Positions 34,676-42,526 of a stretch of DNA of 64,000 bases are shown here, piece after piece (position 1 is the first letter of the stretch; each line of letters opens with the position of its first letter). Source of the stretch: Escherichia coli. Its GTDB lineage: Bacteria > Pseudomonadota > Gammaproteobacteria > Enterobacterales > Enterobacteriaceae. The stretch is from assembly GCF_003334355.1 (NCBI RefSeq), contig NZ_QOWP01000001.1. One strand, written 5' to 3'. Position numbers and translations under genes: made by a program. Below the pieces are notes generated by a model that searched no databases, was not told where the DNA came from, and saw only the letters and a list, made by a program, of their open reading frames with translations.

Positions 34676-34863
34676 TTATAGTTATTCCGTTGCGAAGACC
34701 TGGCATATATTTTGCCTCAATCGCAAAATCAATAATGCGATCGATGCGCCATTTACCACACATTTATTATGGTTATCGATATCATGATACTGCGGCGGGG
34801 CGCTAAAACGAAGGGAAGAAGCATTAGTGTAATTAATTAAAGCAAGATAATACGTATGTTTGA
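34676..34863. promoter_or_regulatory. hyb operon promoter region
   Basis: Non-coding spacer upstream of hybO on the minus strand; no individual sites mapped. Confidence 0.35.
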
Positions 34864-38963: not shown

Positions 38964-39012
38964 AAAAATGCCCGGTTGTGAAAAGCAACCGGGCATCATT
39001 GTGAATTCACTC

Positions 39013-39112
39013 TTACCTGATGTGGCGAAAACGCCTTATCCGCCTACAAACGCATGAAGATTCAACATGTTGCAATAGATTTTGTAGGCCTGATGAGCGT
39101 AGCGCATCAGGC
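39013..39112. repeat. REP/BIME element
   Basis: cgccttatccgcctac and gtaggcctgatgagcgtagcgcatcaggc palindromic REP units between yghA and exbD. Confidence 0.55.
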
Positions 39113-39121
39113 AATTCTACT

Positions 39122-39547
39122 TTACTTCGCTTTGGCGGTTTCTTCGCCGACCAGACCTATCTTCAGGTAACCCGCCTGATGCAGCGTATCCATTACCTTC
39201 ATCAACGTCTCGTAATCGACGGTTTTGTCCGCTCGGAAGAAGATGGTGGTGTCTTTCTTGCCTTCGGTTAACGCATTCAACGCCGTAATCATTGTTTCAT
39301 CGGTGACCGGATCGTTACCGATAAACATCGAGTTGTCTGCCTTCACCGACAAATAAACCGGTTTTTCCGGGCGCGGCTGCGGCGTGCTGGTAGAAGCAGG
39401 CAAATTCACCTTCACATCTACCGTCGCTAACGGTGCCGCCACCATAAAGATAATCAGCAGAACCAACATCACGTCGATAAACGGCGTCACGTTGATGTCA
39501 TGCATTTCGCCGTTATCGTCGAGGTTTTCGTTAAGATGCATTGCCAT
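39122..39547 (-). CDS. exbD: TonB-system biopolymer transport protein ExbD
   Basis: 141-aa ORF MAMHLNENLDDNGEMHDINVTPFIDVMLVLLIIFMVAAP. Confidence 0.95.
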   Translation of the reverse strand: MAMHLNENLDDNGEMHDINVTPFIDVMLVLLIIFMVAAPLATVDVKVNLPASTSTPQPRPEKPVYLSVKADNSMFIGNDPVTDETMITALNALTEGKKDTTIFFRADKTVDYETLMKVMDTLHQAGYLKIGLVGEETAKAK

Positions 39548-39553
39548 CGGATA

Positions 39554-40288
39554 TTATCCTGCGCGTAATTTTTGTGCGACACGAACCGGATGCGCAGCGG
39601 CGCTGGCTTCCAGATCCAGGTCACGGCTTTGCAGCAACAATACCTGCGCTGCAACATCACCCAGCATCGCTTTAAAGCCGCCAATCTGGCGTGCAAATAC
39701 GTTATAGATAACGACCGCAGGAATCGCTGCCACGAGGCCGATTGCCGTTGCTAACAGAGCTTCTGCGATACCCGGCGCAACGACTGCCAGGTTAGTGGTC
39801 TGCGTTTGCGCGATACCAATAAAGCTGTTCATGATGCCCCAGACCGTACCAAACAGACCAACGAACGGAGAAATCGCGCCGATGGTTGCCAGATAGCCGT
39901 TACCGCGGCCCATTTGACGACCCACTGCGGCGACCCGACGCTCCAGACGGAAGCTGGTACGTTCTTTAATACCTTCGTTATCGTCGCTGCCTTCTGACAG
40001 TTCCAGCTCATTCTGCGCTTCATTGAGCAAATGCAGGCTTAAGCTTTTGCTACCAAAATCAGCGGCGATATCGTTGGCCTGGTTTAAGGAACGCGCTTCA
40101 GCCAGCAGTTGCTGCTCGCGCTTAAGGCGACGCTTCTGATTGAAGAACTCTACGCTCTTACTGAAGAAGATTGCCCAGGTGACTACGGAGGCCAAAATAA
40201 GCCCAATCATCACGCACTTAACGACAATATCGGCGTGCTGATACATACCCCAGACGGAAAGGTCCGTCTGCATTAAATTATTACCCAC
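39554..40288 (-). CDS. exbB: TonB-system proton channel ExbB
   Basis: 244-aa ORF MGNNLMQTDLSVWGMYQHADIVVKCVMIGL; start codon is GTG (40286-40288). Confidence 0.95.
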   Translation of the reverse strand: MGNNLMQTDLSVWGMYQHADIVVKCVMIGLILASVVTWAIFFSKSVEFFNQKRRLKREQQLLAEARSLNQANDIAADFGSKSLSLHLLNEAQNELELSEGSDDNEGIKERTSFRLERRVAAVGRQMGRGNGYLATIGAISPFVGLFGTVWGIMNSFIGIAQTQTTNLAVVAPGIAEALLATAIGLVAAIPAVVIYNVFARQIGGFKAMLGDVAAQVLLLQSRDLDLEASAAAHPVRVAQKLRAG

Positions 40289-40321
40289 TGTGTATCTCCA
40301 GGACGCAAGTCACAAAATCTG

Positions 40322-40340
40322 CGCATAATAATATCAAAAC
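40322..40340. promoter_or_regulatory. Candidate Fur box in exbB promoter
   Basis: gcgcataataatatcaaaa (reverse: ttttgatattattatgcgc) resembles GATAAT-type Fur hexamer repeats; exbBD is a known Fur-regulated operon. Exact site not verified. Confidence 0.4.
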
Positions 40341-40505
40341 GACGTCGAATTGATAGTCGTTCTCATTACTATTTGCATACTGCCGTACCTTTGCTTTCTT
40401 TTCCTTGCGTTTACGCAGTAAAAAAGTCACCAGCACGCCATTTGCGAAAATTTTCTGCTTTATGCCAATTCTTCAGGATGCGCCCGCGAATATTCATGCT
40501 AGTTT

Positions 40506-40521
40506 AGACATCCAGACGTAT
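40506..40521. promoter_or_regulatory. Tandem MetJ boxes upstream of metC
   Basis: agacatcc agacgtat, two adjacent 8-bp units close to the AGACGTCT met-box consensus, 19 bp upstream of the metC ATG. Confidence 0.5.
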
Positions 40522-40539
40522 AAAAACAGGAATCCCGAC

Positions 40540-41727
40540 ATGGCGGACAAAAAGCTTGATACTCAACTGGTGAATGCAGGACGCAGCAAAAAATACACTC
40601 TTGGCGCGGTAAATAGCGTGATTCAGCGCGCTTCTTCGCTGGTATTTGAGAGTATGGAAGCCAAAAAGCACGCGACGCGCAATCGCGCCAATGGCGAGTT
40701 GTTCTATGGACGGCGCGGAACGTTAACCCATTTTTCCTTACAACAAGCGATGTGTGAACTGGAAGGTGGCGCAGGCTGCGCGCTATTTCCCTGCGGGGCG
40801 GCAGCGGTTGCTAATTCGATTCTTGCTTTTGTCGAACAGGGCGATCATGTGTTGATGACCAACACCGCCTATGAACCGAGTCAGGATTTCTGTAGCAAAA
40901 TCCTCAGCAAACTGGGCGTAACGACATCGTGGTTTGATCCGCTGATTGGTGCCGATATCGTTAAGCATCTGCAGCCAAACACTAAAATCGTGTTTCTGGA
41001 ATCGCCAGGCTCCATCACCATGGAAGTCCACGACGTTCCGGCGATTGTTGCCGCCGTACGCAGTGTGGTGCCGGATGCCATCATTATGATCGACAACACC
41101 TGGGCAGCCGGTGTGCTGTTTAAGGCGCTGGATTTTGGCATCGATGTTTCTATTCAAGCCGCCACCAAATATCTGGTTGGGCATTCAGATGCGATGATTG
41201 GCACTGCCGTGTGCAATGCCCGTTGCTGGGAGCAGCTACGGGAAAACGCCTATCTGATGGGCCAGATGGTCGATGCCGATACCGCCTATATAACCAGCCG
41301 TGGCCTGCGCACATTAGGTGTGCGTTTGCGTCAACATCATGAAAGCAGTCTGAAAGTGGCTGAATGGCTGGCAGAACATCCGCAAGTTGCGCGAGTTAAC
41401 CACCCTGCTCTGCCTGGCAGTAAAGGACACGAATTCTGGAAACGAGACTTTACAGGTAGCAGCGGGCTATTTTCCTTTGTGCTTAAGAAAAAACTCAGTA
41501 ATGAAGAGCTGGCGAACTATCTGGATAACTTCAGTTTATTCAGCATGGCCTACTCGTGGGGCGGGTATGAATCGTTGATCCTGGCGAATCAACCAGAACA
41601 TATCGCCGCCATTCGCCCACAAGGCGAGATCGATTTTAGCGGGACCTTGATTCGCCTGCATATTGGTCTGGAAGATGTCGACGATCTGATTGCCGATCTG
41701 GACGCCGGTTTTGCGCGAATTGTATAA
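40540..41727 (+). CDS. metC: Cystathionine beta-lyase
   Basis: ATG at 40540 gives [37 protein letters not shown]..., 395 aa; track extension trimmed. Confidence 0.95.
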
Positions 41728-41866
41728 CATTGCCACTTTTGGACAATTTTGCAGACATTTAATTGTGAAAAGTCTTAAATTGTTGCGTCCGGGATCAAGG
41801 CGTCCCGGACGAATCAGGAGTACAATAGGCAGATAAAGGCTTAAACGCTGTTCCACAGGAAAGTCC

Positions 41867-42526
41867 ATGGCTGTTATTCAAGATATCATCGCTGCGCTCT
41901 GGCAACACGACTTTGCCGCGCTGGCGGATCCTCATATTGTTAGCGTTGTTTACTTTGTCATGTTTGCCACGCTGTTTTTAGAAAACGGCCTGCTGCCCGC
42001 CTCATTTTTGCCAGGCGACAGCTTGTTGATACTGGCAGGAGCATTGATTGCCCAGGGGGTTATGGATTTTCTGCCTACGATTGCGATTCTGACCGCCGCA
42101 GCAAGTCTGGGCTGCTGGCTAAGTTATATTCAGGGGCGCTGGTTAGGGAATACCAAAACGGTGAAAGGCTGGCTGGCACAGCTTCCTGCTAAATATCACC
42201 AGCGCGCCACCTGCATGTTTGACCGCCACGGTCTGCTGGCGCTGCTGGCTGGACGTTTTCTTGCATTTGTCCGTACGCTGCTGCCAACCATGGCGGGAAT
42301 TTCCGGTCTGCCAAACCGCCGTTTCCAGTTTTTCAACTGGTTAAGCGGATTGCTGTGGGTCAGCGTGGTAACCAGTTTCGGCTATGCCTTAAGTATGATT
42401 CCGTTCGTTAAACGCCATGAAGATCAGGTAATGACGTTCCTGATGATCCTGCCAATTGCCTTGTTAACCGCTGGCTTGTTAGGCACGCTGTTTGTGGTGA
42501 TTAAAAAAAAATACTGTAACGCCTGA
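41867..42526 (+). CDS. yghB: DedA-family inner membrane protein
   Basis: 219-aa [47 protein letters not shown]. Confidence 0.92.

Follow-up and report, generated by a model that had tools for sequence, protein, structure and literature searches.

The exbB/metC locus

The 64-kb stretch of DNA analysed here (the window) comes from Escherichia coli and carries, back to back, exbB, the first gene of exbBD, and metC, which codes for cystathionine beta-lyase. Between the GTG start codon of exbB on the minus strand and the ATG of metC on the plus strand lies a divergent spacer of 251 bp (positions 40289-40539), whose limits and letters had been given correctly in an original prediction made for this DNA. 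The two genes and the features assigned to the spacer are collected in Table 1.

Table 1 Features of the exbB/metC control region, in window coordinates. The strand is left empty for features without a direction.
Feature	Positions	Strand	Basis
exbB coding sequence, first gene of exbBD	39554-40288	-	ORF list; GTG start at 40288
exbB ribosome-binding site GGAGA (TCTCC on the plus strand)	40295-40299	-	Read from the sequence; putative function
Predicted exbB transcription start	40320-40322	-	Predicted, 6-8 nt downstream of the conserved -10 hexamer
Putative exbB extended -10 element TGaTATTAT	40328-40336	-	TGnTATnAT invariant in 34/34 aligned spacers
Fur box ATTGATAGTCGTTCTCATT (9-1-9 dyad)	40349-40367		Our matrix, published site, conservation
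Weak second Fur "walker"	40361-40379		2.1 bits; 12 bp from the main site
Published MG1655 Fur ChIP-exo interval	40373-40395		Gao et al. 2023, supplementary table; NC_000913.2 3150091-3150113
Conserved block TTTCCTTGCGtTTACGCAGTAAAAAA (minus strand GTAAAcgcaaGGAAA, CpxR-box-like)	40400-40425		Conservation, phasing
A/T-rich tract AATTTTCTGCTTTAT	40449-40463	+	Moderately conserved, identity 0.70 versus ~0.40 in the flanks
Predicted metC extended -10 element TGcTAGTTT	40497-40505	+	Predicted from conservation
Metbox 1, AGACATCC	40506-40513		8.96 bits; first half of the published metC operator
Metbox 2, AGACGTAT	40514-40521		9.51 bits; completes the published metC operator, with 18 nt between its end and the ATG
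metC ribosome-binding site AGGA	40528-40531	+	Read from the sequence, 8 nt before the ATG; putative
metC coding sequence (cystathionine beta-lyase)	40540-41727	+	ORF list, MG1655 annotation of b3008; ATG at 40540

Over the spacer and its edges the sequence matches K-12 MG1655 at 100% identity, and the aligned 5' end of exbB is identical to that of MG1655 b3006. Of 5426 complete E. coli genomes, 5423 matched a 451-bp query around the spacer, with flanking genes named exbB and metC in each case. Window positions are converted to NC_000913.3 by adding 3111696 and to NC_000913.2 by adding 3109718; both offsets were verified against the gene starts and against the position, "-70", published for the Fur site of exbB.

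An Rfam scan of positions 39000-42000 at E ≤ 1 gave no match and hence no known RNA element in the spacer, and a simple scan for -35/-10 consensus promoters and terminators also gave none. Literal searches of literature text for the sequences of the Fur box, the metboxes and the 26-bp block of Table 1 yielded no match. Two short ORFs, at 40281-40436 (minus strand, 51 aa) and 40373-40507 (plus strand, 44 aa), were considered as genes. Indels or variable stretches of the spacer alignment cross both, and it is very unlikely from this pattern that either is a real gene; in MG1655 there is no gene numbered b3007 between b3006 and b3008. As to annotation, the exbB product is called "tol-pal system-associated acyl-CoA thioesterase" in 12 of the 12 RefSeq E. 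coli records listed, a name that belongs to YbgC. The MG1655 record has the correct "Ton complex subunit ExbB", and the thioesterase name looks like a naming error that has been propagated.

Relatives of ExbB were scanned using one genome per species. Across 55 loci, from Escherichia to Photorhabdus, metC lies divergently upstream of exbB, and these include most of the Enterobacterales loci returned. The conservation figures given below are column identities from a 34-sequence alignment of spacers. A different arrangement was found in "Escherichia sp. ESNIH1" (L021, positions 1-1460). There metC is not beside exbB and a 410-aa ORF runs towards the upstream region of exbB, ending ~30 bp beyond the conserved block, with the exbB promoter, the Fur box and the block itself intact.

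The metC promoter and its MetJ operator

We scored the window with an 8-bp metbox matrix, for which we used the 27 boxes that Augustus & Spicer 2011 give for E. coli operators other than metC. The tandem AGACATCC-AGACGTAT at 40506-40521 scored 18.47 bits and ranked first of 63,985 positions, with the runner-up at 13.99 bits, and 0 of 200 Markov-1 simulations of the 64-kb window attained this score. Since the 8-mers flanking the pair are strongly negative (-5.5 and -7.5 bits), the metC operator consists of exactly two metboxes. The supplement of Augustus & Spicer 2011 gives the same 16-mer for b3008 metC, also with two boxes and at 18 nt from the start codon. MetJ boxes had originally been predicted at these very positions before metC, with weight-matrix scoring proposed as the check, and both the top-ranking score and the published operator place them exactly there.

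In the literature, metC is counted among the known MetJ-regulated genes of E. coli, and an 18-bp metC duplex, to which two MetJ dimers bind, serves as the shortest natural MetJ operator. The EC50 of MetJ on this duplex is 96 nM with S-adenosylmethionine (SAM) versus 2900 nM without it, a ~30-fold difference.

The metboxes are well conserved within the Enterobacteriaceae (identity of 0.92), where their distance to the ATG is 13-22 nt, with Shimwellia (43 nt) as the one exception. Our scan of related spacers found none in those of Erwiniaceae, Dickeya, Yersinia, Xenorhabdus and Photorhabdus, in agreement with the published statement that only about half of the Enterobacterales have metboxes at metC. 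In three Serratia loci (L061, L063 and L064), no E. coli-type metboxes adjoin the start codon, and another tandem pair, AAACGTCTGGATGGCT (16.4 bits), is found 60-73 nt upstream of metC. Judged by this match, the MetJ operator of metC seems to be placed differently in Serratia.

The predicted -10 element of metC is of the extended type. Its TG is present in 33 of the 34 aligned spacers, as are T1 and A2 of its hexamer, and T6 is present in 29. The metC transcript would then start near 40510-40514 on the plus strand (NC_000913.3 3152206-3152210), and the metboxes would cover ~-6 to +10. Farther upstream, the A/T-rich tract falls at ~-49 to -63 of this predicted promoter and may possibly, if speculatively, be a UP-like element.

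The exbB promoter and the position of its Fur box

On the minus strand of the spacer, all 34 aligned sequences share TG (40336-40335), T-A-T (40333-40331) and A-T (40329-40328), and the two degenerate positions alone vary. This pattern points to an exbB promoter of the extended -10 type (TGnTATAAT), with a predicted start at ~40320-40322 (NC_000913.3 3152016-3152018). That the simple scan returned no canonical promoter would be due to such an extended -10 promoter having a poor -35 element. The columns of the exbB ribosome-binding site are nearly invariant as well. For both genes, the exact -10 elements, the start sites and hence the operator positions relative to +1 are predictions drawn from conservation and spacing.

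We then located Fur sites with a symmetrised 19-bp matrix of 12 experimentally verified E. coli sites, taken at the centres of Chen et al. 2007 and with exbB left out. Its consensus, AATGATAATAATTATCATT, agrees with the 9-1-9 dyad AATGATAATnATTATCATT described by Chen et al. 2007. The best match in the 64-kb window was the 19-mer at 40349-40367, with 18.86 bits and a runner-up of 12.5 bits. The verified training sites score 20.9-29.4 bits, and we count the box as comparable to verified sites in score. While only 3 of 5000 random spacer-like 251-mers equalled the observed score, the matrix comprises 12 sites only and the score was also attained in 5 of 200 random 64-kb sequences. Only two 19-mers in the spacer scored positive, this one and the weak second walker (joint span of 31 bp), and the latter is poorly kept as a Fur match among relatives.

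The centre of the Fur box, at 40358, is 70 bp from the exbB start (-70). Chen et al. 2007 reported an exbB Fur site of 19.1 bits with its centre at -70, in a 31-bp cluster of three walkers, and observed a gel shift of an exbB promoter oligonucleotide with 150 nM Fur. The sequence at 40349-40367 is identical to this gel-shift-confirmed site. Column identity over the Fur box is 0.97 in Enterobacteriaceae and 0.91 in Erwiniaceae, compared with 0.70 and 0.44 for the whole spacer, and the best Fur match was the same box (ATTGATAGTnGTTmTCATT) in 55 of 55 related spacers, from Escherichia to Photorhabdus. In addition, exbB and exbD belong to the core Fur regulon that Gao et al. 2023 reported for nine E. 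coli strains, and in nine strains they were derepressed. The true exbB Fur operator is thus at 40349-40367. With the -10 element at 40328-40336 and the predicted start at 40320-40322, it would span ~-28 to -46 of the exbB promoter, including a weak -35 hexamer, CTATCA.

The distance of the box from exbB is ~70-80 bp wherever the N-terminus of ExbB is of the short E. coli type. In Dickeya, Acerihabitans, Serratia, Rouxiella, Yersinia, Providencia, Xenorhabdus and Photorhabdus, the box was found 280-560 bp from the start of the region that aligns with E. coli ExbB. The published N-terminal extension of Serratia ExbB fits the long distance in that genus, and the other genera in this list probably have the same long form of ExbB.

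The operator lies ~27 bp farther from exbB than had been thought. The original prediction was right that the spacer holds control elements for both iron and methionine, and right in its placement of the MetJ boxes, but it put the Fur box at a GATAAT-like repeat near 40322-40340 (CGCATAATAATATCAAAAC). All 19-mers overlapping this stretch are negative with the Fur matrix. The best of them scores -2.38 bits, a value reached by 4616 of 5000 random spacer-like 251-mers (92%), so that by the prediction's own terms, under which low matrix scores or binding sites mapped elsewhere in the spacer would refute it, the Fur half falls. The classical 19-bp Fur consensus has its six best matches in the spacer (the sixth at 9/19) outside 40322-40340. 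What speaks for Fur sitting there to repress exbB is that the stretch contains CATAAT and AATATC, each matching a Fur hexamer at 5/6 positions, that it is conserved (0.84 in Enterobacteriaceae), and that at high concentrations of Fur its footprints are reported to extend outward from a primary site. Yet the two hexamers abut without a central base, unlike those of 6-1-6, 7-1-7 or 9-1-9 dyads, and the published 31-bp Fur cluster, with its strongest site at 40358, is placed by the only positive scores of our scan at 40349-40379, short of this stretch. Furthermore, base 40325, which is required for the first GATAAT-like hexamer, varies (A in only 9 of 34 aligned sequences), whereas TGnTATnAT does not. 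This is the signature of an extended -10 element and not of a Fur dyad. On the exbB strand the repeat reads TGaTATTAT, and by its conservation it is the putative extended -10 element of exbB rather than a Fur operator; we consider a Fur operator at this position very unlikely. GATAAT and TATAAT are one base apart and hence easily mistaken for each other, which is a caution that scanning for "GATAAT-like" sequences by eye picks up sigma-70 promoters. A weight matrix together with conservation across genera, by comparison, places the exbB Fur site unambiguously.

Elsewhere in the window, the best match to the classical 19-bp Fur consensus (15/19) is GATTATGTTAATCATCATG at 59303-59321, which is not among the top 25 matches of the 9-1-9 Fur matrix.

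The published Fur ChIP-exo interval

Gao et al. 2023 assigned to exbB a Fur ChIP-exo peak in the exbB/metC spacer; their MG1655 peak list is a reprint of that of Seo 2014. In window coordinates the interval begins 6 bp beyond the Fur dyad, at a displacement of ~26 bp from the dyad centre, and the weak second walker is the only Fur match that it overlaps. For W3110 the interval maps alike, provided that the coordinates there are shifted by 634 bp as at hybO. Two ChIP-exo data sets would then put the interval at 40373-40395, and one could argue that this is where Fur makes contact in vivo, leaving the dyad at 40349-40367 as a site of in vitro binding only. However, the matrix detected no Fur-like sequence within the interval: the 19-mers starting at 40362-40385 all score -13 bits or less, and only the walker at 40361-40379 reaches into it. 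Conservation over most of the interval (40376-40399) is also among the lowest in the spacer (0.55), whereas the adjoining dyad is invariant. A similar displacement is seen at hybO, the only other Fur ChIP-exo interval within the window, where the interval (34790-34802) is +25 bp from the best matrix match (34762-34780), which suggests loose boundaries. On these findings, the displacement at exbB probably reflects loose or offset interval boundaries and not a different site. A Fur contact confined to 40373-40395 appears to us even less likely than one at the GATAAT-like repeat, and we retain the dyad at 40349-40367 as the operator.

A conserved block on the exbB side

Between the two operators, a block of 26 bp stands out with an identity of 0.83 in Enterobacteriaceae, versus 0.40-0.55 on both sides. 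In 24 of 24 Enterobacteriaceae loci, exactly 56 bp separate its start from that of the Fur box. The spacing between the block and the metC ATG is not fixed and ranges from 123 to 168 bp. The block is also kept in L021, where metC has gone from beside exbB. Its fixed phasing with the Fur box and its retention without metC indicate that it belongs to the exbB side, where it is centred ~90 bp upstream of the predicted exbB start. It is unique in the window, absent from Erwiniaceae, and missing from the aligned spacer of Pluralibacter gergoviae (L038), which is only 190 bp long.

We rejected several roles for the block. An RNA hairpin (TGCG-TTTA-CGCA) would have its right arm broken by the variants found in relatives (CTCAG, AACAG) with no compensation. 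As a promoter, the block has no conserved partner hexamer at promoter spacing, and as a terminator it has its T-run before the short dyad and not after it. A search upstream of tonB and the other Fur-regulated genes that we fetched found no copy of the block with 4 or fewer mismatches.

On the minus strand, 40400-40414 has the sequence GTAAA-CGCAA-GGAAA, which differs at one position from the CpxR consensus GTAAA-N5-GTAAA; this pattern is unique in the window. The form in E. coli is GTAAA-N5-GGAAA and that in most relatives GTAAG-N5-GGAAA, with the spacer between the repeats as conserved as the repeats themselves. The block differs from a plain CpxR box in this respect, in a further 11 bp that are likewise as conserved as the pentamers, and in the GTAAG of most relatives. 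A CpxR-type site is possibly what the block contains, this being one candidate. An unidentified upstream factor is thought to add to the anaerobic repression of Ton-system genes. We tentatively suggest, from conservation and phasing, that the block could be the binding site of an uncharacterised regulator of exbBD, although we think this less probable than not; CpxR or the factor of anaerobic repression might be that regulator. In Zhao et al. 2022, exbB and metC are both among 97 matrix-predicted CpxR targets, and the qRT-PCR results are ambiguous, with metC still low when cpxR is deleted and values of 0.70 and 0.20 for exbB. The expression changes given there for the two genes are small or persist without cpxR. 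If the suggestion is true, the exbB promoter would integrate a second signal besides iron, and CpxR would link envelope stress to the Ton motor.

Two independent controls in one spacer

The centres of the Fur and MetJ operators are 155 bp apart. The original prediction had noted that iron and methionine control elements lie within ~200 bp of each other, and this holds with the true Fur box; its remark that both regulons are known holds too, as both the operators and their proximity were already in the literature.

Such proximity in a single divergent spacer, in an arrangement of metC and exbB that is kept across most Enterobacterales, could mean that the operators are functionally coupled, with iron and methionine cross-regulating both genes through the spacer. 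Findings from both sides speak against this. Augustus & Spicer found that the shared exbB/metC fragment is shifted by MetJ in vitro, but that an exbB reporter with the shared region is not repressed by MetJ in vivo. Conversely, metC is absent from the Fur regulon tables of Gao et al. 2023. The operators are also separable over evolution: spacers of Erwiniaceae, Dickeya, Yersinia and Photorhabdus keep the Fur box and lack metboxes, and in L021 the Fur box persists though metC is no longer adjacent. We consider coupling the least likely of all the alternatives. Control by Fur and iron and control by MetJ and methionine are independent, with no sign of coupling between them.

Our combined findings are best explained by two independent promoters, with Fur acting at 40349-40367, MetJ at 40506-40521, and 40322-40340 being a -10 region, and we hold this explanation as a whole with high confidence. 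What the Fur box and the metboxes are, and where they lie, is established by the data given here or by the cited experiments, and it is from cited experiments that the in vitro binding of Fur and MetJ, the control of exbBD by iron and Fur, and the lack of MetJ control of exbB are known. The spacer would hold two sigma-70 promoters of the extended -10 type that face away from each other, each repressed independently of the other, and their predicted starts are ~190 bp apart. For exbBD, RNA polymerase would use TGaTATTAT (40336 to 40328, minus strand). Under iron-replete conditions, Fe2+-Fur dimers would bind the 19-bp dyad at 40349-40367, with a weak extension to ~40379, and the bound Fur would cover the -35 region (~-28 to -46) and exclude polymerase by ordinary occlusion. 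For metC, polymerase would use TGcTAGTTT (40497-40505). At high S-adenosylmethionine, two MetJ dimers would bind the two tandem 8-bp metboxes at 40506-40521 cooperatively, and MetJ positioned at ~-6 to +10 would block initiation.

The exbB/metC control region is thus an ordinary one that has already been described: both operators, both regulators and the lack of cross-talk are published. The one mildly new item is the exbB-phased conserved block at 40400-40425, a small but concrete lead on regulation of the Ton system beyond iron.

Comparison with known Fur and MetJ systems

The exbB operator shares with those of the Fur-repressed tonB, fhuA, fepA-fes, entC, sodA and ryhB a 19-bp 9-1-9 dyad resembling AATGATAATnATTATCATT, which at exbB would likewise lie over the core promoter. 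It is closest in sequence to the sites of sodA (ATTGATAATCATTTTCAAT) and ryhB (…ATTCTCATT). It differs in extent from several footprinted Fur sites, which have 3-13 overlapping walkers, whereas exbB has essentially one strong Fur dimer site and a very weak neighbour.

Similarly, the metC operator has the tandem, in-register 8-bp repeats of the AGACGTCT type that are found by the promoters of metA, metB/J, metE/R, metF, metK and metN, and its two boxes, at 9.0 and 9.5 bits, score in the upper range of known metboxes. In contrast to most other listed E. coli MetJ operators, which have 3-4 boxes, it has only two (as does that of ybdH/mtnE), and it is present in only part of the Enterobacterales.

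As a divergent control region, exbB/metC resembles metJ/metB, metE/metR and fepA/fes, each of which likewise has two outward-facing genes and a spacer of a few hundred bp that contains repressor sites. In those three systems, however, one operator serves both promoters, whereas exbB and metC each have their own regulator and no cross-control is seen between them.
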